Source of the DNA: Eukaryota sp. GEM-RC1
Taxonomy: Eukaryota
NCBI GenBank assembly: GCA_040285855.1
Contig: JAUFOQ010000006.1
Coordinates: 1,922,001 to 1,986,000 of the forward strand
DNA length: 64,000 nt
Direction of reading: 5' to 3'
How positions within the stretch are numbered: the stretch's first letter is position 1; each line of letters begins with the position of its first letter. The notes under the pieces were generated by a model that worked only from the letters and a program-made list of their open reading frames with translations, was not told the origin of the DNA and made no database searches. Positions 1,454-64,000 of the stretch are shown piece by piece. The position numbers were made by a program, and so were the translations under genes.

Positions 1454-2140
1454 TTGGCTATTTGGCCTGCAAATTTATTAAACTATTCAACGTGCTCTTG
1501 TGGAGCTAATGGTGTTTTTCGTCATTTAATTAATTGTCGTTATTTTATTCATCTCCGTGCAGTAATTCATGATGGTGTACGTGATTCTTGTTATTCCATG
1601 TTTAAAGCACATGGTTTTCACTCTAAAGTTGAACCAGTTTTGAATCATCTTTCAGAAAATGAATTTACTGATCAAAAACGAGGGGATCTACATACTCCGT
1701 GGCTTAAATCGAGTCAAGCATTAATGGATTTTACTACAGTAGATGTATGTAACAAATCTTGTGTTAGTAGGATATTAGATTCTTCTTTTAATCCATTAAC
1801 AGCAGCTGAAAAGCTCAAACACACCAAGTATGACTCTCAAGTAGAAGAATTAAATAGAAACTCATATTCCAAATTTGTGTTTCAACCTTTTGCTGTTTCT
1901 CTTTTTGGATCTATTAGTCCTGCTGGTGATCAATTTTTCAAGGATTTCGAAGAATTGTGTAAAGAAAAGAAGCGTAAGTTTAGAATGGCTGAATGGAAAA
2001 ACCGTATAGTGTTTTCCATATATCGGAATATGCCTTTCTATTTCTCTAGATTAATTGAGAAATTGTACAAGTTTGGTGTGAAGGTTCATGTAGATAAACG
2101 TAATCTTTTACCGGGTGGTGATGAAGTCGTTTGGATTTAA
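464..2140 (+). mobile_element. 3' fragment of a CRE-like (restriction-like endonuclease clade) non-LTR retrotransposon
   Basis: ORF 1286-2140 has the post-RT CCHC motif (CSCG...HLINC), then IHDGVRD, KVEP, RGDL, DFTTVD, AEKLKHTKY and FQPFAVSLFG. This is the RLE endonuclease signature of CRE/R2-group elements. No RT core is present. Confidence 0.75.
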
Positions 2141-18255: not shown

Positions 18256-21200
18256 TATTGAACAATATTTCCAAACTTCGTTTCTTGTTTGGGTGTCCTG
18301 ACTGGACTAAGCCATGTAGCATGTAAAGAACTTTCTTTATTAAGCTAGATGGAATCAAAATCTTGTTCTTCGAGTTCATGTATACATTACTCATTGTACA
18401 CAAAGTTGAACCATTAAACAGTTGATCTCCTTGTTCTATCGCTTTAGATTGTTCTGACCTAATGGTGGATAACCAAGAGTCAAATAAAGGAAGTTTATTG
18501 TCTGTTGAGAGATTACGAAGGCACTTGATAGCTAATACGTTGGAGTCACGTGGAAGCATCTCAACATAGTCTGCATCATCATAAAGTAAGCCTTCATGAG
18601 AAAGGGTTAAATCACTTTTGATGGAAAGATTTGAGATCGTTAAAGATTTGATTGTTTCAACTGGGCGACGGTCAATGACACGTGATAACATGTCAGCCCA
18701 TTGATTGTTTGTACCAGCTACATGCTCTATCTCAAAATCAAACTCCGAGAAAATTGGAATCCATCGTTTGACAATACGATTCTTCTCTGGAGCTGAAATC
18801 AGATAAGCAAGGTTCCTATGATCTGTAAAGATCGTCAAATGCCTACTTAATAGGAAACCTTCTAAACTAGATTCGGTCAGAATCAAGAGAATGGCATACA
18901 GCTCTTTCTGGATAGCTGCCCAATTCTGTTGACTATCATTGAGTAAACGGCTATAAAACGATACAGGTCTAACTCTACGTTCTTCTAACGGAGTTCCTGG
19001 AGGAGCTGGGGGATTTTCTTCCTGCCAGATCACACCACCAACATCAATGTCGGATGCATCTGTGGATATGATAATGTTCTTATCAGTATCAGGTAAGTCT
19101 AAAGCCATATGGTTTATTATTTCGGTTTTAATTTTGTCTAATAAAGCATCATGGTCTTTTGTCCAAACAATTTTCTTGGGTTTACCACGAGTCAGTTTAT
19201 TGATTGATGCAGTCAAGTTCGAGTAGTTTGGAATCCATTCACGAACATAATTTAAAGCACCAAGTAAACTTCTTATCTCGGGTAAAGTTGAAGGAGCAGG
19301 TAACTCAATCAACGCCGAAACTCTTTTATCATCTATGCAACGGGTTTTATTACAAAAGTTGCTGCCGAGAATCTTATTAGGATGTCTAGAAGTGGTGAAC
19401 CTACACTTCTTCAATCCAATCCGTACTCTAAAACGTTCTGCTCGTTCCAGTACTAGATTTATTCTTGAAATAAACTCTTCAAAGGTATTGCCTACAACAA
19501 TTATATCATCAATATAAATGAAAACACCTTCGACATTGAAAATTTCCATCATGATGTTTTGAAAAATTGCTGGTACGTTTTTCAATCCAAAACATGCTCG
19601 TTTAAAGCTAATAGACATTCCAGGTATAGACACACTGGTCTTCTCGACATCTTCTTCAGCTACATTTAGCTGCCAGAATGCTTTAGGAAGGTCAAGTGTT
19701 CCAATGAAATTAGCTTTCGAAAGAAACTCTAGAACATCACAGATCCGTGGTAAATTTGGTTTCACCGGTCTGGTATTAGCATTAATCCCATCAAGTCCAC
19801 TGAAATCTCCAGTTAAACGAGGCTTACGGTGATCATTATAAACCACCAAGACTATGGGACTGCTGAACTTACCAGTTGATGGTACGGCCCATCCTTGTCG
19901 TATAAGTTCATTAAAAATTTCTTCGGCTATACGCTGTTTTTCAGGGTTAAGCCTTCTAGGAGGACGAAATACAGTGACACTTTCATCATAGAATGGAATT
20001 GTCATGGGTGGACAATCAATACCATCAGGATGTATATCTTCTGAAAAGACTTGTTTGTATTTACTGAGTAGGCTCAGAAGCTCCGTTCTTCTTGTAGAAT
20101 CATCCAATTCTATCGTGCAACCAGAGTTGTCAATGGTTTCTTCAAACAGATCTATATCTAATTGAGTGTTACCGTACTGATCAATAGTAAAATGTGTTGA
20201 ATTTGGTTTTATTGAACATTTTGATTGAACTCTATTAATCGAAATTGATGGAGACCTCATTCTCTCATCAAATTCACTCTCTGCATTGAGAATAGTGCTA
20301 TGTTCTTTATCTAATCTAATGACTAGACCATCATCCGAAAGCAACCCCAGTTCTTCTTGCAAGTCTCTACCAATGAGGAGAATTTTTGTTCCTGGAACTA
20401 CTGGTAGAGTATGCTTAACATGAATCTGGTTGGCCAAGCTGCCAACGTTGAACGTCAGAACACCTATTGCACTACCTAAGGAAGTAGCACGAATATTATT
20501 CGCTGAGATGTATTCAATACAACTATCAGTAGATGTCATCTCACAGTAGCGTATCAAATCTTGAGAAATGACTGAACATGATGCTGCTGAGTCAAATTCT
20601 CCTACTACTGGTACATTGTTGATTAACAATCGAATACATAAAGGACCCTTACCTTTAGAATCGAACCCTAGGTTCTGGTTGAGACTACGAATTGTTTCAA
20701 CAGATGATGTACTTCTACCCTTGCTTGAATGTGTGTTCAAAGCAGCCAATGGGTTCATGTACTTATGAGGTGTAGTGTGATTATCTCTAGATGTGTTATT
20801 TGTTGCAAGTCTGAAAATATAGTTATTCTGTTGTTTATTGGAACTAAAACGACGACTAAAAGATTGACTACGACTATCACCTGATCTACGTTTGTTGGAC
20901 TTTTTATCACTGTCAGATTGAGGTTTTGATCTACAATCAGTGGAGTAATGGCCCATTTTTCCACAGTTAAAACACTTAACCGTAGACTTAACATCTCCAG
21001 GTGTACCATGAGATTGAGAATGGGGCTTGTTTGCGGTATTTGGTCGATTTCTTCGATTTCTAGAAGGAAAACGACTGGAAGGAGTGGATAAGGACTTCAC
21101 AGCTGTGGAACGCTTGTAGGTAGTCCAGATCGATCTAACTTCTTGGAAGAATTGAGGTAGCTTATCATCCTCAGTTTTGAGACGATGATCCCATCTAAGA

Positions 21201-22429
21201 ACAAGTTCATTCAAAGCAATAATTCCTTTGTCAGGATTCAGTGTTTCTAACATCAACTCGGCTACTGTGGAAGCAGGGACCTTTGTTCGGACAGTTTCAT
21301 CACTCGACGTAGCTATCATCGCCATGGAACATTTGAGAACGCTAATTACGCCACGGAGGTATCGGTCAAAGCACTCAGCAGGGTCTTTGGAGCTACCCAA
21401 TCTTATTTCTTTAATTGCATCAATGGCTGTTGTAGTTGATGAGTATTGACTCTTGTTAATCAATAAACGCCAGATGTTTTGTTCAAGTACCTGACTACTG
21501 TTGTTAGTACCAATCAAATCTAACATTTTCCAATCATTCAAAGTTGTTTGATCTATGAAATGACTAATGCCAGCTGGATCAATTTCACACAATGCTGTCC
21601 TAGCAAGGTCGAATTTGTTCAAAGGAGTACCAATCCAGAGGTCATAATCGAAACGTTCAGTTTGTTTTCTGACATGAATGGCCCAATGAAAGAAGTCATG
21701 AATAAACTTCACAACCTCATAACTAGTGTCGTTTTTCAAGAACGGCTCTCTGTCTTTTTTCTTCTTGATCTTCTTGGGAGGAGTCACACCAGATGAGAGA
21801 ATAACAGAATCATGAAGGACATTGTCAGGACGTTCATCTTCAGAGGATTGACTAAGGTCGATGTGATTTTCAATCGATGGAGACAAATCAGGAAACTTGT
21901 TTGATTGTCTATCTCTTTCTGCTTTGGTTTTGTTGGCTTCAGCAATCAACGCGTTTCTATGTCGAATTTTCGGTTCTTCGAGTTCTTTTTTCGACATGAC
22001 TTTTGATTCTTGGTTCAAATCACGAGTGAAGTTCTCGGTTACACGGTAAACGTTTTCATGTTCTTCACTGGCAACAAACCGATCAACGTCTCCAAATTCT
22101 CCATCAAACTTTCTAGTTGAGAGAATATCACGTGAACCATCAGTGAAGCGGTCAACAGATTCTGGACGGAAAGGTTCACCAGGAACGTGAGCAGAAAGGC
22201 GAGCAGTTTGACGTAGCTCTTCAGGCTTGGGAAGAAGTGTACCAACTTCTCGTAAAGCACCATGAGCAACAGGAAGGACCTTTTGAGATCCACCAATGCC
22301 ACTAAACTGTTGGACAACCACAGAACCTTCATCAGGAACAGCTAAGGTCGTGTTTGATGCTTCCAAAGGTTGACTGTGGAAGGTTTTCATATCTATGACC
22401 AACGGGAAGGTGTCTAGAACTAACAGCAA
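18224..22429 (-). CDS. Gag-protease-RT-RNase H polyprotein
   Basis: CFNCGKMGHYSTDC zinc knuckle; FDSAASCS protease; LDLPKAFWQ, FGLKN and YIDD RT; TDASD, KELYAI and FTDHRNL RNase H. Confidence 0.95.
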   Translation of the reverse strand: MLLVLDTFPLVIDMKTFHSQPLEASNTTLAVPDEGSVVVQQFSGIGGSQKVLPVAHGALREVGTLLPKPEELRQTARLSAHVPGEPFRPESVDRFTDGSRDILSTRKFDGEFGDVDRFVASEEHENVYRVTENFTRDLNQESKVMSKKELEEPKIRHRNALIAEANKTKAERDRQSNKFPDLSPSIENHIDLSQSSEDERPDNVLHDSVILSSGVTPPKKIKKKKDREPFLKNDTSYEVVKFIHDFFHWAIHVRKQTERFDYDLWIGTPLNKFDLARTALCEIDPAGISHFIDQTTLNDWKMLDLIGTNNSSQVLEQNIWRLLINKSQYSSTTTAIDAIKEIRLGSSKDPAECFDRYLRGVISVLKCSMAMIATSSDETVRTKVPASTVAELMLETLNPDKGIIALNELVLRWDHRLKTEDDKLPQFFQEVRSIWTTYKRSTAVKSLSTPSSRFPSRNRRNRPNTANKPHSQSHGTPGDVKSTVKCFNCGKMGHYSTDCRSKPQSDSDKKSNKRRSGDSRSQSFSRRFSSNKQQNNYIFRLATNNTSRDNHTTPHKYMNPLAALNTHSSKGRSTSSVETIRSLNQNLGFDSKGKGPLCIRLLINNVPVVGEFDSAASCSVISQDLIRYCEMTSTDSCIEYISANNIRATSLGSAIGVLTFNVGSLANQIHVKHTLPVVPGTKILLIGRDLQEELGLLSDDGLVIRLDKEHSTILNAESEFDERMRSPSISINRVQSKCSIKPNSTHFTIDQYGNTQLDIDLFEETIDNSGCTIELDDSTRRTELLSLLSKYKQVFSEDIHPDGIDCPPMTIPFYDESVTVFRPPRRLNPEKQRIAEEIFNELIRQGWAVPSTGKFSSPIVLVVYNDHRKPRLTGDFSGLDGINANTRPVKPNLPRICDVLEFLSKANFIGTLDLPKAFWQLNVAEEDVEKTSVSIPGMSISFKRACFGLKNVPAIFQNIMMEIFNVEGVFIYIDDIIVVGNTFEEFISRINLVLERAERFRVRIGLKKCRFTTSRHPNKILGSNFCNKTRCIDDKRVSALIELPAPSTLPEIRSLLGALNYVREWIPNYSNLTASINKLTRGKPKKIVWTKDHDALLDKIKTEIINHMALDLPDTDKNIIISTDASDIDVGGVIWQEENPPAPPGTPLEERRVRPVSFYSRLLNDSQQNWAAIQKELYAILLILTESSLEGFLLSRHLTIFTDHRNLAYLISAPEKNRIVKRWIPIFSEFDFEIEHVAGTNNQWADMLSRVIDRRPVETIKSLTISNLSIKSDLTLSHEGLLYDDADYVEMLPRDSNVLAIKCLRNLSTDNKLPLFDSWLSTIRSEQSKAIEQGDQLFNGSTLCTMSNVYMNSKNKILIPSSLIKKVLYMLHGLVQSGHPNKKRSLEILFNSGYFWPEYES

Positions 22430-23561
22430 CGTTGTGATACGGATTGCTCAAGCTTTGACAATACCACGCTGAGTAAGCATACGTAACGTATCTACCATCG
22501 GCATCGAAACTAGGTTCCAATGGTTCAATCAAGATACCATGACGAGGATCCCATGAGTAATCCGAGGGATAACGATACGTATCCACAGCATCTCCATCAT
22601 ACAAATCACCGAGAAAGCGTTCAATAACTTGAGGGGAAATACCTGGAGGAACGTTCCTCAACAGATAGTGCCGTCTTTTAGGCATACGGTTGCGGATGAC
22701 AGGATGCCAAGGAGCGAACTTCGCCAAGTGCCACATGTCGTAATCAGAGATACCAACGCTGTTGTCTTGTGGACTTACCCAGCTATTTGGGATAGCATCC
22801 TTATGGAAGTGCTGTTCCTCAATAGACCCAACTAGCTCTTCGACTTTGTTGCCTCGATCTTCTGGAGAGAGACTCATCTTACGAGCTAGAAGTTCCTTTT
22901 CAACAAGAAGCTTCTGTTCTGCTTCGAGTCTTCTAGACTGCTCTTTGGCGAGAGATTCCTGTAACTTGCGAATCTCTTCAACCACTTCAGTTGACCTCTT
23001 TTGAGGAACTGGAACAACATCGGGAATGCTTTCTTTATTAAAACTATTTCTACGAGGAAGAATAGGGAGAGGAGACGCTGTTACAACAACATCATGAATC
23101 TCGGAATGCGGAGTACTGCTACTGTCAGCATCGCTTACTCTATACTTCTCTAACAAGCTTGGGATACGGTCTGAAATTACAGAGGGAGTATCCAAACCCA
23201 CTTCGCCATCCTTGCGGGAAGACGAAGTCCTTCCATCCTCAGATGGGCATCCACCTTCAGGTTGAACATCTACAACTCTACGAGAAGTAGATTCACCAAC
23301 CTCAGGTGAGATTTCCGTCACCTCCTTGTGGGAAGTGGGGCTTCTATCCTCAGATAGGCATCCGTCCTCAGACAGGCATCCATCCTCAAATGGGTCACTT
23401 TCAAAGTCCGACGAGTCAACTGACTCTTCTGTCTCAGGAACCAATGGCTCCTTTCGACGGGAAGACACTTTGGAGCTAGACTTAGATCTAGTCAAAGGTT
23501 TGTTTCTACGATTAGTTTTGTTTCCCGCTTTTGGGGGGTTAGTAGTCCTTTTCTTCACCAT
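22332..23561 (-). CDS. Upstream ORF1 of the gypsy element, unknown function
   Basis: ~409-aa ORF with ATG at 23561, just inside the 5' LTR boundary: basic N-terminus, acidic EDGCLS repeats, coiled coil and an aromatic-rich C-terminal domain. Overlaps gag-pol, which is in the +1 frame. Confidence 0.8.
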   Translation of the reverse strand: MVKKRTTNPPKAGNKTNRRNKPLTRSKSSSKVSSRRKEPLVPETEESVDSSDFESDPFEDGCLSEDGCLSEDRSPTSHKEVTEISPEVGESTSRRVVDVQPEGGCPSEDGRTSSSRKDGEVGLDTPSVISDRIPSLLEKYRVSDADSSSTPHSEIHDVVVTASPLPILPRRNSFNKESIPDVVPVPQKRSTEVVEEIRKLQESLAKEQSRRLEAEQKLLVEKELLARKMSLSPEDRGNKVEELVGSIEEQHFHKDAIPNSWVSPQDNSVGISDYDMWHLAKFAPWHPVIRNRMPKRRHYLLRNVPPGISPQVIERFLGDLYDGDAVDTYRYPSDYSWDPRHGILIEPLEPSFDADGRYVTYAYSAWYCQSLSNPYHNVAVSSRHLPVGHRYENLPQSTFGSIKHDLSCS

Positions 23562-23577
23562 CTTGGACAATAATTAT

Positions 23578-49666: not shown

Positions 49667-51582
49667 GTATGAATCATTACGTAAACCGTAACGTAATTGG
49701 TGTACAAAACACCAATTCTGTTTGAACGCTGTGTGGAATTTGATATATGGTTGAAGGTGTTGTATTATTTCTCAAGGAGTTGTAGTGTTTTTCTTTGTTT
49801 GTTGATCAAGATATTTGATTTTTATGAGAATAGACCAACTATGGGAGATTTACTAGTGATAAACTGCACAATAATAGATGAGAACAAAACTAAACCGCAT
49901 GTATTCGGAATTTTTGAGGACGGATTACATACGACATTTATACACCAGACCAGTTAGCCGTTGAATATGTATAGTTCATTGTGAGCGTCACTTTTGGTAG
50001 ATAGCTACTACTGAGACATCACATTTAGCGAGATGTGATGAGTTTCAATTCAGAAGAGCTACAAAATTCATGTGTTTTATCGCCAGTTGAGAAGATGATT
50101 ACATATACCAAAACCAATGTCACTAATACTGTTGGATTCTCTAGTAACCTTTATAAATCTGGGGTTTTCATTTTAGTTGCATTTTAGAACCCCATTCAAG
50201 AACACCACTACGAAGAACACTTTTTCTGTTTTCTACCTATCAACATACATTCTGTAGCAAAACATGCTAGTCCCTATGTCCCATTGTTTGTGAGGACCCT
50301 TAATCATGAAGAACCATGCTTCAAACAACAAAGCTCGTGTTATACATTGCTCTCAGTACCTGACAAACGTTCCTACATAGATCTAGAACTATACAATGCC
50401 TCATCGGTGCCACAGATATGGATATGAGTGTTGTCATCAAGTTTGTGTATCCACATTATGTTTTGTCCTCTGTATATGTCTGTAACAATACTAAAAACCA
50501 ACAACATATTTGAGGGTCCCTATCTTATATAAAAACAGACATTTTTCATGTTATTTAACAGATATCTATGGGTCTTTATTGAAAAGATTACAAGCCGATA
50601 TGGATTAGAGTTGCCGTTGACTGGACTCGAGTCAAAAACTCTAAGTACACTCGGGCACAGACTCGAGTCGCGCCGATCGTCACACACACAAACCAATTGT
50701 TCTCAAGTGAAGAAGATGTTGACCTCTTTGTCAACTTCGAAAGGAGTTGGGGTATAAACATTGAGTACAGGAACCTGGAGTACATAAATAAGAATGTTCC
50801 TTGTCAGGCTACTGAAAAATTGTACAAACTAAGAGACTGACGAGATGAAAGAGTGGGCGGAGGAATGTTAAAAGGTTGACCACTGTCTTCAGGAAAGATC
50901 AGAGGCTTCTTACATGGAGGGGAAACAATTTGATGGGCTACAACATGGAATTACGATGAGCATAAATCTGCTTGAAGGACGTAATGAAGAGAGGGGGGGA
51001 ATGGTTGGTTGCTCTCAGTCTTGAAGACATGAAAGCAGGGGATTTAGAGAGGGTAGATCTTGAGAAGGGTAGATCTTCTGAGCGAAATAGAAGACTTGAA
51101 ACGATAGAAGATTTCTGAGATCTCGGAAACAAACTGTAAGGAACAAAACTCTTTCGGGAAGAATCAGTGTAAACGGTACAATGAATCCAGTCTTCAGGAT
51201 TGTATTAAGCTTCAATAAGTGATGAAATCAAGACCAACATTCGGATGACAAGATGTCAGTTGTACTTACTGATAATTCATTCAAGATCTCATCAGCACCA
51301 GTGAAATCGTTGGTTGAGAGAAATGGAGGATCTTCTGCTTCGGCCGAAGATGCTGAAAGGCGAAAAGACGAATTGAATCGAACATGTAGAGATGGTGTCT
51401 TCTTAGTAAATGTAGATAAGACATCCCAAAGTAAAATTAAAAAGAAAGATATATTGACAAGATCAACCTATACATTGTCCATGTAGAGGACACTGAAAAG
51501 TGAAAAATGAAGACAATCGTCAATAAATGTCTTGACTGACATGACACTGTAGACACATCTATAAATACCAACAACCCACAAA

Positions 51583-52127
51583 ATGGTCCATTTTTTTGCT
51601 CACATGTCGATGTTCATTGATTCGACGGCTATGAGAGGCCTGTTTTTGGTGGGAAAGTCATCCTATCAAATCAGGTGGAATTCTACAGAAGCAACTTCTG
51701 TAGATATCTTGTATCCATACAGCCTGGGTGGGACCGGGCGGCAATATGCTATTCAAAGGCATCATTGTTCAAGCAAAACCCCAAGGAAGGCATTTTTGGT
51801 CATTGATCCAATTCAATCCAAATTTTTTATTTTTTCGAAGTCGAGGGTTTTTTATGGGAGTATGTGTGTTGTTTTTGGCAGTCAGGCCTATCATTTTTAC
51901 ATGCCCAGCATGGTGATAGAACCACCAGGGCAACACACTGCTTTCCAGCCCCCAAACTTGCCTCCTTGTAAAATTCAGTGGATCGGTGGTGGTGGTGGTG
52001 GTTTTGGTGGTGGTGGTGAAATTTTATTGAAGTGTCGTTTTTGCAAATTTCTGTCAGTTTTGATTGTAGACTGCAGTTCAAAATTGATCTTACGTCTGAT
52101 GGTGATGTGGAATCCAATCCAGGTCCA
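51583..52127 (+). CDS. Putative leader polypeptide (Gly-rich) ending in a 2A-like peptide
   Basis: ATG at 51583 follows TATAAATA (51560). ORF 51583 joins the 2A frame if one base is added after 52020 (e.g. T-run 52022-52025). No recognisable domain. Confidence 0.35.
52086..52127 (+). other. 2A/StopGo ribosomal skipping peptide motif DLTSDGDVESNPG|P
   Basis: Exact D(V/I)ExNPGP consensus (52104-52127) with the upstream DLTxDG typical of viral 2A peptides; same strand as, and 128 nt before, the exonuclease-Fanzor ATG. Confidence 0.8.
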
Positions 52128-52255
52128 CAATCTAATCCCAATTCTGATCCCATCGGTACAAGATTGAGTGTTCCTTTTATTCGACTTGATGATTCGACTT
52201 CCATTGTTCCCCCCTGTTAAAAAAAAGTCGAGTTGATAGTAGTTCTAGTCCTCCA

Positions 52256-55200
52256 ATGTCCAATCTCGAAATTTTAGCAAGAGTTGCCAAAAAGGCTCAA
52301 GTTGAGGCCAAATCGCGGAGAGCTCCCTTGAAAATTAATGGACAACGCCTGTCTAATAGAGTTTTTCCTGCTAAGAAATCTTGTCTCAAAGCTTTGAGGA
52401 AAATTAAGCCACATGACAACAACGAAAAACAGAATTTGATTGAATTCGGATGTGCTCAAGAACACCCTAATACTTATGCTCTTCCAAAAATTATGTCTAT
52501 TGACCTGGAGACAATGCATCATGATGATGAAATTCCAACAGCTATTACGGAGGAATTTAGTAAGCTTCGAGGAAAGGAATCGCTGAAGTTAAAAAAGATG
52601 AATTCAGAAGAGCATGATCGATGGATTGCTAGCCAAAAAGTTATGTCAGTTGCATTAATTTTTGGCCGTTTTAATGAAGAAAATTTTTACGAAGAAAAAT
52701 CAATTATTATCTGTGTCAACCTTTGTGCAACAAACCTACCTTCTCCAATTGAATGCAGTTTATCCCCAAGAACTGAAATCTATGTTGTGCCCAATGAGTT
52801 GGTCCTGCTCCATATATTGATGGACGTGATTCAAGATTACCAGCCAAATTTCATTACTGGTCACAATATTATTGGATTTGACTTCAAAGTTTTGGAAAAG
52901 CGTTTCCAGTTTTATCAGTTCCCATGGCCTGTTAATGTCCAAGAATCCAACCTTAATCCTTTATCTAAAAACTGGCGTGAAGTTGTTAAAAATAAACACG
53001 GATACTTGATACTTGATACTTTATTGTTTGCAAAACGTTTTCTCACAATGAAATTTGGAAACGATTTACCATCTCTTACACGAAATCTGATACACGAATT
53101 TTGTCTCAGACTTAAAAAGGAAGAACTTGGAAATCTTTTGCCCATTGATTGTTGGTGTGAAAGTACACTGGTATCTCTCTTAGTTGATTACAATTATCAA
53201 CACGCCAACTTAACTTTAAAACTTTGTATGCTCTTTCAGAGAGAAAAATTTATTCTTCCAACTTATAGAATGGTAAAGTCTACTCTTCCACGAATTTTGA
53301 AGCATCGTGATGTCTTTGAAAACATTGTGCAGCTAGCACCTCAATTTCACGAACTTCGTCGCCATACCCTACAGTGCCTGCAATTGTTTTTATCAGCAAG
53401 ATTTGAACGTGGCGAAGCGTTACCTGAAATTACTGAACAAATGATTACGTCTGTAATGACTCGAATAAATTATCTCTGTGCCCAATTTTATGGTCAGCCC
53501 TATAAACGGCCCAGTAGTGCAATTGATGCGGACTTAGAACGATTTGTCATGGGAAAAGCACAATTCGACAGCAACTCAATTCACAAGGGCTATCGTATTC
53601 AGTTAGAAGCAAATGAAGGCCATAACTTTCCAATGTTTCCTCCTCAAGGCTTCTCTAGACCACCAGAATACATTGCTCCAGTACTCCTGTGTAACATTAA
53701 CAACAACTTGAAACTCCACTTTGAAAAACATATTAATCGTTTCATTAACGTATATTTTGGAAAAAACAGTCTGAAGAAGAAATTTCAAATTTAATTAAAG
53801 AGCTGCCAAAAGAAGAACGACCTGATTGTCAACAAACTTTAACTTTGTATCGTTTTGCTCTTCGACAGATTAAAGACATTTTTACTGCTGAATCTGTCGA
53901 TAACTTCAACTTGTTACTTTCAAATCAATTTTGCCTAGAAAAGTTTGAAGAAGATTGGAAGGATAAAGCAGGGGAAAAAGGAATGACACCTCACGAACAA
54001 GACTTTTTATACGATGCCTTTATTTACCCGTATGTCGTTGAAAAATTTGAAATTTTGCAGAGATCACCTCCTTTTGAATTAAGAGTGCTTCGACCATTTA
54101 CTAAAATTTTGGAACTCGAAAAAAAGCCTCAATTATTCATGCCGGCAGCCATAACTATGAATCGTTATGTGAAGGAGAAAGAAGCAGCGGCTTTTCATTG
54201 GTTTCCCGCTGTAACCACGGTAATCCCAGGCTACTTTCCTATTGATACTAGAACTTTGTGGAGTATCGTTAGGCAAAACAAAAAAACCAAGGATCTGAAG
54301 TTCATGAACAACCAGGCTGAGGTGACCAAGTTCAAACCAAAAGACCAACATGATTTTTGGAAAATGTTTGTAAACTTCGATTTAAAAGAATTCAAAAAGA
54401 AAGATTATGTGTTCAACAACATTATCCACAGTGACGGTCAAAACTGTTCACTTGAGTTAGTTAGGCGTGACTTTGCTGGTGAAAAAGAGGTAAGGATGAT
54501 TTACAAGGAAAGATTAAAGAAGTTTATTGTAAAGACTTGAGAGCAGAAAAATTTACAACAAAAAAAGTAGTTGTCTGTGACCCTGGAAAAAGGGATCTAC
54601 TTTATTTTGGTGTAAGAAATGAAGAACAAATTCAAGAAAACAAGTGTAATTGGCTGCGACTGACACAATGCAAATGGACTGTGGTAGCAAGAAAGCAACA
54701 ACACCTGCTAAAAGGTGCCAGAAGAAAGTTCAAAGTTAGACCATCAAGAAATAGATCAAATCAAGATTCTGAAAGTACTCCACCGCTCACAATTGAAGAA
54801 ACTGATAGCTTGCTTTCAGGATTAAGTCCAAAATCTGCCACGTTTGCTGATCTCGAAGCTTGGGTCCAGGCCAAAATGAAACAAGTGACGTCAACCGCTT
54901 GGTTTTACTGTTCTGCCTTATGGCGCATCCAAAAAATGCGTTCCTACATCCATAAGCAGAAAGTAGAGTCCTGGTTGTTGAAGTCACTCGAATCGACTTT
55001 TGGACGAAGAAGAGAAGAACTACTGATCTGTATGGGTGATTTTGGGGCAAATGGTCAAGTAAATTTGAAACATCACAGACCGACAAGAGGAATCGGATGG
55101 CGGTCTTTCTTGAGAAGAAATGGATTTGAAGTCGTTTTATTGAATGAAAAGAAAACGTCCAGTTGCTGCCCAGATTGTGAAAGTGAGGTGAAGAAGTTCC

Positions 55201-55404
55201 ATAAGATCGAGAATCCAAGACCCTACAGAAGAGAAAAAACTCCAAAAGTGCTTTTGTCATGGTCTACTTGAGTGTCGAAGCGAGAATTGTAGAGGATCAA
55301 GCGAGAGAAAGTATTGGAATCGTAATCAGCTTGCGTGTTTGAATATGTTGAGAATAGTAGATGGGTATAGAGAAGGAAGAGGAAGACCTGAATATCTCTC
55401 GTAG
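52256..55404 (+). CDS. Family-B DNA polymerase 3'-5' exonuclease domain fused to Fanzor1 (TnpB-like RuvC), ~1,050 aa reconstructed
   Basis: ExoI SIDLET, ExoII GHNIIGFD, ExoIII YNYQH. Then Fanzor1 blocks: MVKSTLPRILK, NNLKLHFEKHINRFINVYF, WFP..TVIPGYFPIDT, IHSDG.CS, RuvC-I VCDPGKRDL, GDFG..PTRGIG, RuvC-II LNEKKTSSCCPDC, HGLLEC..C, RuvC-III WNRNQLACLN. Three single-base breaks in A/T runs (~53761, ~54482, ~55252). Confidence 0.88.
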
Positions 55405-55545
55405 TTAGTAACGTAGTATAACTTTCCCCGGAGGGAGTATGCAGAGATGTATACTGTATTGCCTTCGGATTTTGTAGAGTAATTAAGGAAGATGTGTGAA
55501 AACAGTCCTCGGACTGAGTAGAAATGCATTTGAAATGAAATACAC
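55405..55545 (+). ncRNA. Putative Fanzor omega-RNA scaffold (locus 1)
   Basis: Directly 3' of the Fanzor stop. Hairpins AGTATGCA-GAGA-TGTATACT and CAGTC-CTCG-GACTG. Block ATGCATTTGAAATGAAAT(A/C)CAC is shared with the second Fanzor locus. Confidence 0.7.
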
Positions 55546-55679
55546 CTTTAGATTTGAAATTACGAGCTTGTCGTTTTATCAACGGATGTTGTCTTGACAC
55601 ACTTTATACATCTGACACAATAGTTATCATGAGTCAAAAGAGTCAGTGTTACACGAGTTCATGTACATGTAGTATGAAT

Positions 55680-56269
55680 CATGGAACGCAAATGTTCCGT
55701 ACCGCGGCGATTTTAGGCGTACCGTACCGTACCGTACCGTACCGTACGTACGTACGGTACATGTACCGGTACTGTACTTGGGACCGACTAAAATCAACCA
55801 TTACTGTTTTGAACATGATTATCCAATGTGAGATTTTAACAGTTACCATCGTCATAAATTCTACCGTTAGACATTGCTCAGGATATCAAAATCCTGATTG
55901 TCACATCTATTCAAATTTAGGGTACGTCATTTGCTGACCACAACTTCCCCAAAATGAGTTGTTTACGTAAGAACCTCAGCAATCGCTCGAAATCAACAAT
56001 AGTAGTAGCTTCTTCGAATTGCAATGCATTTATTGAGTGGCTACGACGGAATATAACAATGATACAGGGCCCAAAAACCCACAGATTGGATTTCTAAACG
56101 ATCAGATGATGCAGTATCAATTGGCACTAGTACTGTGTTTGACTAGTGAATCTCAAAAAATAGTATTTGTAAATCCATTTCGATCATTCATAAATAGGCT
56201 TTTTATAAAATCAAAGGACATCGGTACGGATAAAATAAATCGGTACGTACCAAAGATTTGCGCACATTG
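55680..56269. mobile_element. Degenerate hAT-type MITE, 590 bp
   Basis: Weak TIRs CATGGAACGCAAAT / CAATGTGCGCAAAT; flanks GTATGAAT / TAATGAAT (6/8); left (CGTAC)n repeats mirrored by CGGTACG on the right. Confidence 0.5.
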
Positions 56270-56669
56270 TAATGAATACACACGAATAATAAACACTTTG
56301 ACTTATTGTTCGGATGTTTGAAACTTATTCAGAACGACAGGCGATGCTACAAACTTGAGAAGAATTTAACAAAGCAGTTTAACTTGCAGATGACAAAACT
56401 TGTAGATCTAAGTCTACTTAATTCGGAACATGTCATCTTCAAAAATCTAGCAACAACACTTGTTCTGTTACAACAAATCTATCTCTCAACTTCTCTGTAT
56501 ACCAGTACATTGTACCACAATACGATTGGTATAAAAGACATTAATAATTGATGTATTATATCAAACAAATTTAATGAATACACCGTAAAAATCGCTGTAT
56601 TTAACAAACTTTAAATAAAAGAGCAGAATAAAACCAATAAAATAAAACACTAAAAAATGTACATGACCA

Positions 56670-58355
56670 CTAATCCATTTGATAATTGAACTGAGAATAA
56701 ATATAATGAAGAATATCGGATCGAATTTCATTATCTTCAAGGTTAATGCTAGTCAAAGTATTGTTACTCCTAAGAGTTGAAGCTATCATTAATGCTCCCC
56801 GACTAGTTATTCCTGTATCCAAAAGATTGAGAGTTTCAAGAGAGGTATTAACCTTGAGAAGATCGCTCCACTCCTTGGCACCAGCATCACCAATGTTATT
56901 GAACCACATATTTAAAAATTTTAAATTTGTGTTTTCCTTTAACCCATCAATGATAGCCTTGAGACCTCGCAAATCTATTCCATTGTCGCCTATTCGAAGA
57001 TGACAAAGCGGATGATTTGATTTTAAAATATCTCCAATAATTGAAATACCTTGAGAACCGATATTATTTGTCTCAATACACAATGAAATTATCCGTCCAC
57101 TGTCTCTAATTGCCGAGAGAATCTCCTGAGATCCTTTAGGTCCAATGTGATTGTCCCCCACATCAACATTACTCAAACTACAGTCTTGACTTCTCAAGAA
57201 ATCAGCCAGAACAATAGCACCCTTTTCTCCAAAGTTATTTTCTCCTAAATCAATCTTGGTTACTGATGTGTTGACCTTCAAGGCCTTAATCAGATTCTTT
57301 AAACAACATACATCGACTCCAGTATTCCTCAAACCAATAGATTTAAGAACGTTATTGTGTTCTAGCGCAGTGCATATATAGCCAATGCCTTCAGTACCAG
57401 CATCAGTGAATCTAAGATCAAGGTCAATCAAACTTGTGTTTGATTTGATTAGGTTTCCGATTGCCATTACACCCAGCACGTCGAACGAATTCTCACCAAT
57501 CGAGAGCTCTTTTAATGTCGTATTATGAGCTAGTGATTGAGCTATGGCAGTCGCTCCTTCATTCCCTATACTGTTAACTCCTAAATCAATAGAAACAAGT
57601 GATTTGTTTGCAGTCAAAGCTCCAGCTAAAGCGAAAGCTCCTTCGTTCTTGAACTTGTTACACCACAACTTAAGCGACGACACAGACTTATTGACCTTCA
57701 AAGCATCTGAGATCAACCTGGCTCCTTTTCTCCCAAACTTGTTCGTCCCCAGATTCAAATCAGTGAGAGTGTTGTTTGATTGAATTACAGAAGCTAAGGC
57801 AGTGGCTCCCTTACGTCCAAGGTCGTTGCAACGAATGTCAAGAACTCTAATGGAAGTGTTACTAGCTAGTAGAGTGCAGAAGGGTTCTATGAGATCTTTG
57901 GTTATGCTACGGATAAGGTCTATTTTAATGAGATTGGGGCAGAAGAATTTGGATGAGGGAGAGATGAGATCAAAGCTAGTACAACGAAGTTCAACCATTG
58001 AGACAGAAGAGAGGGGGAAAGGAAGGGAGCTAAGAGATTGAAGGTCAGGAAGTTCACCAAGTTCAATATGAAGGGGGTCTACGTTGAACATGTTGTAGAA
58101 GCTACGCCAAGCTTGATATTCTTCAGAACCAACAACAATTGTACGGGATTGTAGGATGGAGCGAGTAATAGACATACATGAGTGAAAGAAGCGGTTACTT
58201 ACAAAGCCGTAGTTTGAGAAGAGTTTTGATATGGATGATGTAAACTTTTCGGTCCAATATAGACCAGGTAAACGGTACATACGACCATAGCAGTGTTTTA
58301 ACACTAAGAAAACAATACTGTCAGAGCAATAGAAAGAAGGACATTCAATTGGCAT
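56670..58355 (-). CDS. RNI-like/NLRC3-like leucine-rich repeat protein
   Basis: About 14 28-aa repeats of type N.TL..L.L..N.IG.EGA.AIA.AL; likely start MPIECPSF at 58355. Confidence 0.9.
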   Translation of the reverse strand: MPIECPSFYCSDSIVFLVLKHCYGRMYRLPGLYWTEKFTSSISKLFSNYGFVSNRFFHSCMSITRSILQSRTIVVGSEEYQAWRSFYNMFNVDPLHIELGELPDLQSLSSLPFPLSSVSMVELRCTSFDLISPSSKFFCPNLIKIDLIRSITKDLIEPFCTLLASNTSIRVLDIRCNDLGRKGATALASVIQSNNTLTDLNLGTNKFGRKGARLISDALKVNKSVSSLKLWCNKFKNEGAFALAGALTANKSLVSIDLGVNSIGNEGATAIAQSLAHNTTLKELSIGENSFDVLGVMAIGNLIKSNTSLIDLDLRFTDAGTEGIGYICTALEHNNVLKSIGLRNTGVDVCCLKNLIKALKVNTSVTKIDLGENNFGEKGAIVLADFLRSQDCSLSNVDVGDNHIGPKGSQEILSAIRDSGRIISLCIETNNIGSQGISIIGDILKSNHPLCHLRIGDNGIDLRGLKAIIDGLKENTNLKFLNMWFNNIGDAGAKEWSDLLKVNTSLETLNLLDTGITSRGALMIASTLRSNNTLTSINLEDNEIRSDILHYIYSQFNYQMD

Positions 58356-59759
58356 GATGAGGAAGGGAAGAAGAAGTAAAATTTGAAATCTCTTCGATTT
58401 GCTAACATTGGGTTTTACAAAATTAATAAAGACAGAGGTATAGATAGACACAGTAACAGTACTGTGTCTCAGGTGACCTCCATTATTAGACTGCATACGT
58501 AGCGTTATCGACTACAATGTACATGTATATCTCCAAATTGACATTAACAACAACCATTTGAAAATTCACCCGAACAGTCGATTAGTACTGGACAAAACTT
58601 CAACTGCAAGGAGAGCACTAAGTGACTGTTGTTATAAAACCAGATGGATGGAAAATTTGAAGCAACATTTTGAAAGGAAGTTATTTCCGTGAATCACTCG
58701 AACTGATATATGTTATGTTTATAGACGAAGTGGACGACAATATATGTCAAAATAGAATATATGAAACACTAGACGGAAAATTGTAGGTCAAAAGTATTTT
58801 AGTTCTTTTACAACTCAACTCCGTGATAATTGATTTAACATTTCTAGGGGTAGATCGAAACAGATAAAAAACTCAAACGGTTATCCTGTTTTTCAGTTGT
58901 TTCCAGATCGTGAAAACATTTTGAAGTGATGATGTTAACATATATTTGACCACATTAGATGTATTGTTGTAACAGCAATAATTATTTGACTGGAATCAAC
59001 AAAAAGGACCATGTAGGGCAGCTCGACCAGAATTATTAATCAAATCAAGACCATTCTTATTAATTTGTATTTAAACATCCATATATCGTCACAGAGTTCC
59101 TTCTATGAGAAACACTCTGGCAGCACGAGTCCAGGAAAACAAGCTGCAGCGTTTAAGTGCAACTTCTAGAGAATCCAAAAACATCGACTTATCATCAAGT
59201 CTTATTATCAAGAACTGCCATTCTGTCAGAAAGGTTTCTGAAAAAGCACTACAATAGTCACGTTTAAGTTTTGTGTTACACTGTATTCAAGTGGATAACC
59301 TCATTATTGCATATGTAATTATGTAAAAGAACTAAAATTTGATATCATCAAAACAACACCCGTCGCTATCAAATCGTACAACAGCTTTGTTCTCATAAAA
59401 GGAACTCACAGCTAGTAAAACGTTGGTGGACATGATAGGAATTGTTTTAAAAAACTGTAGAACCGACGCGGTTCAACAATAACATAAGATGAATACGTAA
59501 ATTCATAAAGGGTTAGTTCATTCAGATTAACCATTTTCACAATCAACTCAATGAATAGGGATCAATTTGGATGTTTGATCTTAATTTGGTACTTGAAACC
59601 AGTATAAGAATAGTCAACACAGTAGAGGCTACAACGAATGTGTATGGTCCAATTTACGTGTAATATAATCTAGGTGTAGAAACTAAAAAAACGGGGTTTA
59701 TGATCAGTCAGTGAAATAAATGCATTTACAGAAGTTAATAACTAACAGACACTAACTAA

Positions 59760-60602
59760 AGTATCTAAACTATGATCCTTCTGTCCATCATCGAACAACT
59801 TACCTAAAATTGAATTATAATATCTGTGCATTGAACGAAACAACGCAAAAATATCCTACTCAACCAAAAATTTTCATTGAAAACTTTACCGTACCCAGAA
59901 CACAATTTACCAAAGGAAGTTAAAAATCTTGTGCAGCTGGTCCAATATTACCGTATATCGACATCGCAAAAGGTTGAAACACAAAAGAATTGTACCTGTC
60001 AACATTCAACTGGTTAATTAAGTGACAGTACTTTGTTTTTTTTCCTTTTCCAGCCACTTCAAGAGCAGAAAAATCATCATCAAAAATTTTGGAAATTGAT
60101 CTTGAATTACAAGGATCAACAGTCGTGAAATCCATGATAATTTCCTGACAAGATAACCAAGGACCAATCAAATCACCACGACTTCTATCAACTTTTGGCT
60201 GATCAGAAAGATTAGCAAGTAAAGGTTTAATTTTTCCATGAAAACCATTAGCCTTAAACATATCCAAACATGTATCCCGGATACCGTTGTGAATAATTGA
60301 TCTAAAATGAATAAATTTATGACAGTTAACTAAATGATGAAAATTTGAAGCCTTTGAACGACCACAAAGACATGGAGAATGCTTCAAAAGACCTGAAGGC
60401 CATAAACCTAACCTAAGTCTCATGTTTATACACCATTCATGATCCTTAAGATTAAAACAAAATTTTCTTGACCAACGAGAAACAAATGAAGACGCAGTGC
60501 TTGAAGAAATATCATTCAAAAAGCACAAAAAGCGGGACTCTTAGTGCGGGACTCTCTTGCCAAGCTAATATATGTAGAAACTTAATCAGTGAGTAAACAC
60601 CC
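59760..60602 (-). mobile_element. 3' fragment of a CRE-like non-LTR retrotransposon, abutting the Fanzor locus 2 end
   Basis: ORF 59920-60528: WCINMRLRLGLWP, CLCG..HLVNC, IHNGIRD, RGDLIGPW and FQPFAMSIYG. Upstream TATTAGCTTGGC (ISLA) matches the 464-2140 copy. The 5' boundary is uncertain (60570-60602). Confidence 0.75.
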
Positions 60603-60706
60603 GTGGATTTCATTTCAAATGCATACACCTATATGCACTATCACCACAGTTTGACACATTGTGCCACTCATTTGCAAGCCTTTTAGGACGAGCTAACTTA
60701 TAAGAT
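60603..60706 (-). ncRNA. Putative Fanzor omega-RNA scaffold (locus 2)
   Basis: Directly 3' of the Fanzor stop. Hairpins ACTGT-GGTG-ATAGT and TGCATAT-AGGT-GTATGCA; shared 18-nt block at 60607-60624. Confidence 0.7.
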
Positions 60707-63700
60707 TCAGGATTCCGGTTCTTGATTCTCTACTTGTGAGTCTTTGGGTACATCTCTCTGGGCCTTACTTGGGCAATTTCTTCTATCATGTCCTGGTTGT
60801 CTACATATCGTACATGTACGAGGACTTTTAGGAGGCACAGGTCTTTGAGGACACTTTGCCGTTGTATGGCCTTCCATATGACAAAACTGACACTTACTCA
60901 CACTCTTCTTCTTGGGAACCTGATCTGTAATCCCACCATCCTCGATAGTTATTGTTTGAGATTTTGGTCTCTCGAGGACAGCAGGTCTACCTTGACCTTG
61001 GATAATTCCATTTACAATGTTATAAATGTTAATAGCAGAGTTGAAGTCTCTATTCCAGCGGACATGACATTTAGCACACTGAACTAAGCCCCATGGTGAG
61101 ACTTTGTTGCTCTTCAATCTTTCTTTCATGAATGGCAACTGTTTGGTCCATTCATCATCAAAATTACGTTTCACAACATTGCCTAATTGATTGTGTTCCA
61201 TCACTTCTTTTTTCAATTTCTTCTCCTCCTTCTGTAACTTCTTCTTCCACAGAGGATCAATGACTTTGACAAAGTCAGGATTGGAACAGATACCTTCCTG
61301 GTCTTCAGCAGCACAAGCAGAGCAACATTTGCTTGTCATAAATTCATCAACTAAGAAAACTTTAAATCCAAATTTTCTTAGTAAGTTTCGAAGAGTAGCG
61401 CCTTTTACTGTACTTGCCTTACCCCTTCTTCTTCGGAATTGAGTGTCATTCCAATCCCCAAAACCAACAACGACTTCATTGGGATCACCATATTGGAGAG
61501 CTAATCTGTGGACCAAGTTTTGTTCCCTTCGTTCTTTTCTTGAATATTGGGTAAGGCGTCTACGTCTAAAAAATTTTTCTTCATAAAGGCCTTCTGTTGT
61601 AGCAGGTATTTGTTGAGTTGGTCCTTTCTTAGGTAGTTTCTTTGATGGTCCTTTCTTAGATAGATTCTTTGATGGTCCTTTCTTTTGATGTAATCCTTCA
61701 GCAGTTGCTTTTCCAGTTGTGGTTGATCTCATTAATGCACAGAAAACTTCATTGTTAACCATGTATCTTGAAAATTCTTCCAATTTACATGATTTTCTTC
61801 TTGGAGTATCAGAACTGTAGGAATCCAGTATTTTCTGACCATTCCACACACTCTTCTCAAACTCAGTTGAGTACCTCTGTAATCGTTCACTTTCGGTCAA
61901 TTTGACAATTCCTCTGTTGCCACGTTTCCTTTCAAGTTTTTTGAAATTTCGTTTTTCCTTTCGTTCCTTTTTAGCTTTTTTTCTTTTTTTGTTTCTTTGT
62001 CAATTTTTTTGGAACTGTGATGGCTGATTTTTTCTTGGTTTCCATCTAGATTTGTTAATATCTGCCTTTCTCTCCCCAGCAGTGTATCGGAACACCTTCC
62101 ATTTGTCACGCCTTTTCCACTTTACAGGTTGTGGGTTAGTGTCTTGCTTCCAATCATTTAATTGTTTTTTCATTTTTTCAAACTTCCCCTTTTCTTAGAA
62201 GATAATGGAGCAATCTTTCTTTTTCTAACTAGGGTAACTGGCTTGGGCTCAATTTCCTTCTCACTTGAGGAATCATCCTTCTCAACTGAGGAATCAATAG
62301 ATTGTTCATTGGAAGTAAGATCAATTTCTGTAACACAAGCATTGGCCATTCCATTTTCTATCAATTGTTTTGTTTCATCGACTTCAAATTTCTCACACGC
62401 CTCTTCCTCATCAGTTTTTAAACTGGCACAATACATGAGATCATGTTGGTTGGGGTCAACAGCAACAATTCTCTTAGATTTTAAATTCAGCTCTTCAATT
62501 TCATCTTCACTTAAGGAATCAATATAACGCTCATTTGAAGCAAGATTAACTGCTATAACATTTTCACGGGCATTTCCATTTTCATCAAGTAAATCTTTCC
62601 TCATCATCAACAAACTACAACTTAAACCGTCTGACAAAATTGAAGTGTATTTAAAGTCATAGGATAATGACTCTGGAATAGCCTGAGGTTTTAATACTGA
62701 ATTCCAAATAGGTTTCCGTACATCATTATAGTTATAGGGAAGATCCCTACAAAATATTTCGTGAAACCATTGCGTATCGAACCTGATATGATTTGGAATT
62801 AAAGATTTAGACAACGGGAAAGGATTGTTTGCTCTTACACCAGGACAATAGTCTTCAATGAGACGGTTCAAATATAATGCATGACTTAAAAAGTATAACG
62901 GATCACTCTTTTCGGCATAGTAGATCGTTTTCTCCATCTTTCCTTCAAAATAATTAAACAAATAATTGAAGAATAATATACTCAAGTGAGATTCCGGATT
63001 GGTAAAAACTTGCTTGTCATCAAAATTAATTTTGGAAATTTCACCATTAATGATCAATTCTCTAACTTCATTAATCCTTTGACAGAGTTCTTGTCTTTGG
63101 GTTTTGTCAGTAAGAGCTTCCATTCTCTCTTTCTTTTGAGTAACCAAGTTAAAGACTTGAAAAACATACTCATGAAAGTGTTGGCTCATGTTGTTCTTAT
63201 AATTAGTAATAATTTCGGTTGCAACGTAACCGAGAGGGTTAGACAAATATAGTCCACTTGGAAACACGATCCTATCTCTGCCAACCATTTCACCAGCAGT
63301 TTCTAACAGAGGGATGTAGTTTGATAGGAAGTGTTGGGCGAACTCCTTCTTTGTAGTTGTTGTTTTTGCATTAGAAATGATGTTTTGTAAAGAGTTTTCC
63401 ACAGTTTTAATATGATCAGTACTGTTGAAAAATTGGTGATTTGGAATCCACATCATGGCCAACAGTTGTGACATTGGAGTCAACTTAAAGTAAGCTCCCC
63501 AGTCTGGTAATTCAAATTTGGTAGTTTGAATTTTAGTAAAAAGGTCAAGTTCAGGTTCACCAGTTTCATTTTCATCACCGTCTTCTTCTAAAATATGGCT
63601 GTCTTCTTCTGAAATTTCGGATTCAATTGTACGATCCAAACCAAAATCAGGGTCTGAAGTCACAGGCAATTCAGTTTCTTCTTCTAATTGTTGAGGCACA

Positions 63701-64000
63701 AACTCTTCACTTAAAACTTCTGTTTGTTCAGTGTCTGAAACTTCTGTGTCTGTTTCAATTTCTTCTTTAACAGTGAAAATGTAGTCAGATGGAGGTAGTA
63801 TCTCTTTGACCTTGTCGAAAATTAGAGAGTTGTGAAACTTAGTTACGAAAAAATGTTTCAACATATGAGTACCACGAACTCTGACTTGATGAGCTCTCTT
63901 AGCACAAGACTCCATCCAATTGGCTTTAGTCTTTGATACAACATTATCTAATCGTTTCTTCACTGTCTTCAATGGTGGTCGTTCTCTTAATTTTTGCTTC
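60707..64000 (-). CDS. Fanzor1 (TnpB-like RNA-guided RuvC nuclease) with two C-terminal CCHC zinc knuckles; 5' end outside window, ~1,100 aa or more
   Basis: KTVKKRLDNVV, YVATEIITNYKNNMSQHF, FPLSKSLIPNHIRFDT, ILSDGLSCS, ERYIDSL, RuvC-I VAVDPNQHDL, VFRYTAGER, FGDW, RuvC-II VDEFMTSKCCSAC, WGLVQCAKC, RuvC-III WNRDFNSAIN. Breaks fall in poly-A Lys-rich tracts (61900-62200). Confidence 0.92.

Follow-up and report, generated by a model that had tools for sequence, protein, structure and literature searches.

A 64,000-nucleotide (nt) stretch of the Eukaryota sp. GEM-RC1 genome (contig JAUFOQ010000006.1, positions 1,922,001 to 1,986,000 of the forward strand; this whole stretch is called the window, and positions are counted from its first letter) contains a 2A/StopGo motif directly upstream of an exonuclease-Fanzor gene. 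The 2A motif is genuine. According to the favoured reading, to which a probability of about 0.6 was assigned, a leader, the 2A, a polymerase B (PolB)-type 3'-5' exonuclease and a Fanzor1 nuclease belong to one reading frame which is broken here at homopolymers, and the 2A would likely release a nuclease of about 1,090 residues starting with Pro. By sequence comparison, the gene is probably a member of a mobile gene family with multiple copies.

The 2A motif of the window

The sequence DLTSDGDVESNPGP at 52086-52127 (+) represents the 2A/StopGo motif DLTSDG-DVESNPG/P (the slash marks the skip site), in which upstream motif 4 is followed by the core octamer. It was the single match to NPG(P/H) or D(V/I)ExNPG among the six frames of the 64 kb. 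In the available part of PMC12846837, the 2A core is given as (D/G/C/N)(V/I)ExNPGP and DLTxDG as upstream motif 4, which goes with D at p12 and S at p15. DVESNPGP at 52104-52127 agrees with this core, DLTSDG is motif 4, and both companion residues, D at p12 and S at p15, are present in the window peptide. By base composition, GD(V/I)ExNPGP is expected 1e-6 times per window, or 0.24 times over 250,000 windows, and the core together with the upstream DL 3e-9 times per window. An earlier note on this DNA had pointed out a perfect 2A consensus upstream of the exonuclease-Fanzor; this was borne out by the match to the published StopGo class and by the low chance expectation. Also correct were the positions given there for the C6 run (52209-52214), the TAA (52218) and the start of the Gly-rich frame (ATG 51583).

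That the motif arose by chance, or lies on an unrelated fragment adjoining the Fanzor gene, is barely conceivable. As assembled, it is out of frame with both of its neighbours, but the expectation of 3e-9 and the same position and class of the 2A in four divergent clusters of relatives speak against such a coincidence.

Relatives with the 2A in frame

The search of 1.84 billion representatives resulted in 30 matches with E <= 0.001, and together with the cluster members 52 proteins were scanned. The named relative records fall under three source labels, unclassified eukaryotes (P0023 is outside this count). NPGP was found in 6 of the 52 proteins (P0006, P0008, P0012, P0023, P0040 and P0041), every time upstream of this exonuclease, and not once in a control set of 18 proteins, made up of full polymerases and ordinary Fanzors with 13,054 residues in all. 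The 2A peptides were WKKDLTVDGDIHPNPGP in P0006, WIKDLTADGDVHKNPGP in P0041 and WIRNLLLDGDVEANPGP in P0023; P0012 has DEDVEANPGP and its record begins 10 residues earlier. Counted by clusters, the in-frame 2A is present in four of the nine divergent clusters showing ExoI (P0006, P0008/40/41, P0012 and P0023), and the exonuclease identity between divergent clusters is 19-37%.

The distance between the final Pro of the 2A and ExoI was 48-293 residues in the relatives and would be 126 residues in the window if the frames are joined. The order leader-2A-exonuclease-Fanzor was present in one record in P0006, P0008 and P0041, and the order 2A-exonuclease in P0012, P0023 and P0040. Trp is located three residues before DLT/NLL in P0006, P0008/40/41 and P0023, and His occupies p14 in P0006 and P0008/40/41; in the available part of PMC12846837, p14 His is described as a functional 2A variant with about 90% activity. 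Among 72 distinct DLTxDG contexts, p14 His occurs in 7, as in P0006 and P0041. In P0006, a SENP8-like C48 (Ulp1-type) protease fold begins directly behind the skip site (feature score 0.94, TM 0.68), for which Pfam itself gave no match.

In the exonuclease tree, built from 16 rows of which two were under half filled and with the deep forks unresolved, the family exonucleases formed one clade (100/99) to the exclusion of 5 full polymerases; the 2A bearers occupied three separate branches of this clade. Comparison of these predicted proteins supports an in-frame 2A as the family architecture of the exonuclease-Fanzors.

P0035 is a gene model of 2,027 residues in which a DEAH-type helicase is joined to an exonuclease-Fanzor without the 2A, either a real fusion or a false splice. 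A word-indexed search with 6,190 candidates gave no longer relatives, yet P0003, P0035, P0036 and P0041 exist, and blanks from this search are weak.

Frame pieces and the junction of the 2A with the exonuclease

The element is divided on the + strand into six frame pieces: the leader from ATG 51583, the 2A frame (52020-52220 from stop to stop, without an ATG inside), 52193-53794, 53749-54540, 54483-55271 and 55192-55404. Four of the five junctions require one extra base, and on each side of the 2A motif one base is lacking for a continuous open reading frame (ORF) in the window as assembled. The last break had also been taken for a missing base, which did not hold, as one base fewer is needed there. 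At the junction of the 2A and exonuclease frames, C6 is the only run of at least 3 from 52193, where the exonuclease frame opens, to the TAA, and it is the single C run of six in the 64 kb, where C5 runs occur 3 times.

Among the 20 overlaps of successive long same-strand ORFs in the whole window, 15 need one base more and 5 one base fewer; all of them contain a run of 4-7, and when the two overlaps inside this element are left out, one more base is needed in 13 of 18. The earlier remark on the same error type across the window is to be read against these counts. The single-base gaps in the tandem gene were mixed, 5/15 being located at runs of 5-7 and 10/15 at runs of 1-2; several of these gaps are probably alignment edges.

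Eleven near-identical records were found. P0049 tracks the window nearly letter by letter, with its shifted tail as well; it was excluded from all counts, and the comparison set consisted of 10 other records, 91-98% identical and located on 5 contigs. At A6 53761 all six spanning copies carry one base more, with the frame open, and the same was observed at A5 54482 in all three spanning copies. The four frame changes of the copies' own are each one base short and each at an A run. On account of this break pattern in the copies and the ORF overlaps, the breaks of the window fit with under-calling of homopolymers, and the C6 run is likely one base short.

Codon scores from a training set of 17 other long ORFs step from frame 0 (leader, 51940-52090) to frame 2 (2A, 52060-52210) and to frame 1 (exonuclease, from 52240). 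It is very probable that the 2A frame joins the exonuclease frame. The frame-offset arithmetic gives a released nuclease of about 1,093 residues, in good agreement with the size proposed previously. The leader-2A-exonuclease-Fanzor unit of the earlier note stands as the architecture of the relatives; in the window, no copy spans the C6 junction and the link to the leader is weaker.

The alternative that C6 is real and that the frames are joined by programmed -1 frameshifting or by a tiny intron is highly improbable. The required shift is indeed -1, and by inspection a 17-nt GT..AG segment at 52216-52232 would restore the frame. However, the C6 run is out of the phase of a slippery heptamer (by inspection), no shift is needed at this place in the relatives, and the same element has four more breaks of like kind.

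Table 1. Features assigned to the exonuclease-Fanzor element and its surroundings in the window
Feature	Position	Strand	Basis
TATA-like box and candidate leader start codon (ATG 51583, A at -3)	51560..51585	+	sequence; putative
Candidate leader ORF, Gly run at end	51583..52083	+	one base more within 52019-52083 required for the 2A frame
Spacer after the skip site	52128..52217	+	coding-like codons in the 2A frame as far as the C6 run
Basic, low-structure N-terminal stretch of the exonuclease frame (LLKKSR), internal ATG 52256	52193..52500	+	sequence, gene models of copies
C6 run, likely one base short	52209..52214	+	sole homopolymer in the 25-nt passage 52193-52217; shortness presumed
PolB-type 3'-5' exonuclease	52490..53215	+	PF03104 E 1.8e-16; alignment
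Fanzor1, split into four frame pieces by breaks at A6 53761, A5 54482 and about 55234-55255	53255..55404	+	stop 55402; zinc-finger cysteines
Candidate omega-RNA scaffold	55405..55545	+	final 22 nt match, at 21/22 positions, the sequence downstream of the window's second Fanzor
9-nt direct repeat, candidate target duplication	55590..55598, also 51528-51536	+	within chance

Leader

The Gly-rich ORF is probably the leader linked to the 2A. The missing base had been placed near 52022, a position which cannot be fixed, since there are 7 runs in 52019-52083 and each of them could supply the base. A site before 52077 is preferred because Phe is then kept at the position of Trp (Phe 6, Trp 32 and Ser 0 of the 72 contexts). 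No Pfam family was matched by the window leader. The leaders of the relatives are 75-247 residues long where seen, with 10 residues in P0012, and are Ser-rich or hydrophobic; they gave no Pfam families, and the leader of P0041 resulted only in leads below 0.9 in the Atlas. P0006, P0040, P0041 and P0042, which belong to two exonuclease-Fanzor clusters, have a common Ser-rich repeated leader start and differ in the 2A and downstream parts. This suggests, at the level of sequence, that 5' parts were exchanged between exonuclease-Fanzor families.

Exonuclease and Fanzor1 domains

ExoI DLET, with the Asp at 52502, and ExoII GHN..FD are intact in the window exonuclease, so that both the D-x-E and the ExoII Asp are present. 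The ExoIII Y-x3-D is not, as the window reads YNYQH with His replacing Asp. The same YNYQH was found in all four near-identical copies that span ExoIII, whereas divergent relatives reaching ExoIII retain Asp. Due to the ExoIII His, the exonuclease of the window subfamily may be impaired. Of 20 pattern matches to the exonuclease piece in a metagenome scan, none was confirmed. The basic patch behind the skip site, previously likened to a nuclear localization signal, is clear in P0012 and P0023 (11 K/R per 50 residues), only weak in P0008/40/41 (5-7) and missing from P0006 (0); judging from these sequences, it is not general across the four 2A clusters.

P0036, a relative of 1,096 residues without breaks, aligns to all four nuclease pieces of the window and matches SpuFz1 with E 4e-31 and PpFz1 with E 4e-24. 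In the Foldseek search with the P0036 model (mean pLDDT 60.8, RuvC part under 50), rows 1-7 were Fanzor1 structures, followed by family B polymerases, with Pol delta as the best non-Fanzor. Through P0036, the homology with Fanzor1 extends over the N-terminal, RuvC and TNB parts. The RuvC triad, aligned via P0036 to SpuFz1, is D-E-N, with D at 54579, E at 55146 and N at 55324. The RuvC-III Asn was considered as a sign of a dead nuclease, and this was dropped since, according to the available part of PMC11423790, GtFz1 is active with Asn at the third triad position; in the same source, D606N raises the activity of SpuFz1.

A second, divergent Fanzor1 is located at 60710-64000 (-), open at the window end and with one break near 62175. 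It has a D-E-D triad, a zinc-knuckle-like C-terminal tail and no exonuclease in the part visible.

Predicted skipping activity and the weighing of alternatives

The peptide found to be nearest to that of the window in the human-cell screen of PMC13405545 (a table of 3,994 rows) shares 13 of the last 14 residues and was classed as skipping. In the available part of PMC12846837, the examples of motif 4 resulted in almost 100% skipping in reticulocyte lysate.

A number of observations weigh against one continuous frame with an active 2A. The window leader has no likeness to that of P0041 and showed no conservation, an ORF open for its 152 codons arises in 303 of 20,000 shuffles, and the codon signal is absent over 51580-51940. 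The records of five of the nine divergent clusters are without a 2A. The P0003 family, without a 2A in the 139-1070 residues before ExoI, is a real counter-example; of the other 2A-less clusters, P0005, 81% identical to P0012, begins 3 residues before ExoI, and P0002/31, P0011 and P0025 have 65-122 residues upstream of it. The records of P0012, P0023 and P0040 end within the exonuclease, and the Fanzor part of P0012 and P0023 is not visible. All relatives are automatic gene models in which false splices are possible. Among the 10 near-identical records, 5 begin at Met 52256, 5 farther downstream and none upstream; P0004 and P0037 have a common early end away from long runs, and some copies may be truly decayed. 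The peptide itself has Ile directly ahead of DLT, a position where 50 of the 72 distinct DLTxDG contexts have Arg or Lys and none has Ile, and, three residues before the Asp, Phe where 32 have Trp and only 6 have Phe. The replacement of Trp with Phe kept the activity in 5/7 class B peptides, at a 2.3-fold lower level (PMC12338488, available part). Among the 12 DGDVE peptides of the PMC13405545 screen, 3 skipped, 5 gave drop-off only and 4 gave nothing.

An ancestral 2A that has become a relic in the window subfamily, with C6 and TAA being real and the start at ATG 52256, or with the copy being dead, is considered distinctly unlikely. The starts of the near-identical records, the atypical residues ahead of DLT, the ExoIII His in 4/4 spanning copies and the 2A-less P0003 family are in favour of a relic. 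However, a start at Met 52256 is expected either way because the 2A frame is without an ATG, and models begin there unless both upstream junctions are intact. In addition, the 14-residue motif is perfect, coding-like codons persist to 52210, and the breaks elsewhere are copy-specific losses of one base.

It is also possible, though unlikely, that the 2A is in frame and yields no separate downstream protein, acting as a stall and drop-off attenuator or being read through to leave a leader-fused protein. Besides the 9/12 DGDVE peptides with drop-off only or without skipping, this agrees with the available part of PMC13405545, where protein levels were reduced for most retrotransposon 2As, and with that of PMC3708506, where the core motif alone was insufficient and down-regulation of the downstream product was proposed for retrotransposons; moreover, the leaders have no common domain worth co-expressing. 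On the other side stand the almost complete skipping of motif 4 examples, the skipping of the closest tested peptide, and P0006, where the downstream Pro is exactly the point at which a folded protease begins.

The 3' region and element ends

The candidate omega-RNA did not fold better than shuffled sequences (z -1.0; a second value was -1.1), and no Rfam match was obtained over 50000-64000. The 22-nt motif within 55491-55545 (+) and 60603-60648 (-) differs in one base at the end, ACAC vs CCAC, and a short word upstream changes in step with it, GUGU vs GUGG (by inspection of two sequences). A compensated stem at the omega-RNA 3' end is possible on this comparison. About 300 nt behind the Fanzor stop, a self-complementary array of GTACC/GTAC units is located at 55709-55795.

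No terminal inverted repeats of the exonuclease-Fanzor element were found, and no transposase-like ORF was detected in the 6 short flanking frames scanned. According to the available part of PMC10432273, Spu-1 is likewise without an adjacent transposase, and action in trans was suggested.

Other elements in the window

Similar ORFs at 1265-2137 (+), 14739-15275 (+) and 59923-60540 (-) resemble what we take to be C-terminal fragments of non-LTR (long terminal repeat) retrotransposons of the restriction-like-endonuclease type. The last of them begins just behind the candidate RNA region of the second Fanzor and gave no match in Pfam. Three long ORFs that overlap one another lie at 16948-23573 (-), and an integrase-like motif is visible by eye in the last; together they are probably an LTR retrotransposon in which two junctions need one base fewer. 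The stretch 24301-48706 (-) is occupied by a very large gene of secreted type, which is split into many frame pieces and contains 10-12 near-identical internal repeats spaced 0.7-1.4 kb apart.

Discussion

In the proposed mechanism, one mRNA would carry one frame with leader, 2A, PolB-type 3'-5' exonuclease and Fanzor1. The ribosome would skip the Gly-Pro bond at the 2A, and the exonuclease-Fanzor starting with Pro would be freed from the leader. The likely purpose is a fixed N-terminus of the nuclease without the variable, partly hydrophobic leader, and partial drop-off of ribosomes at the 2A could keep the dose of the DNA-cutting protein low. An omega-RNA encoded downstream of the stop codon would be bound by the freed protein, which would cleave by the D-E-N RuvC site, as in GtFz1. 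For the exonuclease, the prediction is a trimming of the 3' ends left by the cut, which may help the element to be copied into the broken site or may scar the target. Proofreading domains of polymerases can clip unpaired 3' tails in break repair. The broader proposal of a self-processing, virus-like polyprotein, in which an active 2A releases a cutting and trimming Fanzor-exonuclease and further enzyme modules stand behind the skip site, has about an even chance of being correct on these sequences.

The window peptide shares DLTSDG, p12 D, p15 S and NPGP with the DLTxDG motif-4 2As (PMC12846837; the class B-like group of PMC12338488). In the available part of the former source these are described from RNA-virus polyproteins, whereas the 2A studied here is located in a nuclear mobile gene. 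The relatives retain the Trp and two clusters use p14 His, whereas the window copy has Phe and Ile upstream. Of the 123 DLTxDG-bearing loci from viruses and metagenomes, not one matched the exonuclease-Fanzor profile, which did find 6 window ORFs as control. The 2As of apurinic/apyrimidinic endonuclease (APE)-type non-LTR elements (L1Tc, Ingi, CR1, L2, Crack) are similar in being N-terminal, ahead of a nuclease and in a single mobile-element ORF; a deubiquitinase-type domain is sometimes nearby and a lowered downstream output was proposed (PMC3708506 and 10.64898/2026.06.17.732966, available parts). In contrast, a PolB exonuclease and an RNA-guided RuvC nuclease stand behind the 2A here, and neither APE endonuclease nor reverse transcriptase was detected in the Pfam scans of the window pieces and relatives.

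With the known Fanzor1 proteins SpuFz1, PpFz1 and GtFz1 (available parts of PMC10432273 and PMC11423790) the element has sequence and fold in common over the Fanzor length, and D-E-N is as in GtFz1. Like Spu-1 (PMC10432273), it is a multi-copy gene with no transposase seen adjoining; a candidate RNA region lies behind the stop. It differs in its length of ~1,090 residues, due to the N-terminal exonuclease, in the 2A ahead and in that terminal inverted repeats were not found. The relatives have ExoI, II and III as the proofreading exonuclease of family B polymerases (PF03104), but there is no polymerase domain, the fusion to Fanzor is direct, the exonucleases form their own clade and the window has the ExoIII His. 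Accessory DEDDh nucleases are cited for P and piggyBac elements in the available part of PMC3627910.

No report of a 2A or an exonuclease on a Fanzor was present among the literature matches listed, and none of 2A use in Giardia or Trichomonas. The term Fanzor occurs nowhere in the available parts of the 2A surveys checked by term, and exonuclease occurs 0 times in those of the Fanzor papers PMC3627910, PMC10711439, PMC10530073, PMC13565253 and PMC10432273; both are mentioned, apart from each other, in the available part of PMC6338049. In the supplements of PMC13405545, two large tables aside, four accessions and three peptides were not found, and an uncommented listing is possible. The element is composed of known parts in an arrangement not found described.

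The release of a protein from its leader by a 2A is familiar in RNA viruses and retrotransposons, not in Fanzor genes, and the cellular 2As on record come chiefly from retrotransposons and a small number of marine gene families. A 2A kept before an RNA-guided nuclease at 19-37% identity makes a cellular role of 2A testable on five natural peptides, on which skipping, drop-off and nuclease dose can be measured. Engineered Cas-exonuclease pairs exist, and the natural Fanzor-exonuclease fusion is the arrangement that genome engineers build by hand, here with a D-E-N site; the subfamily with a possibly dead exonuclease provides a built-in comparison. If the polyprotein proposal is true, StopGo recoding would be at work in a mobile element of the DNA type and in the gene of an OMEGA nuclease.

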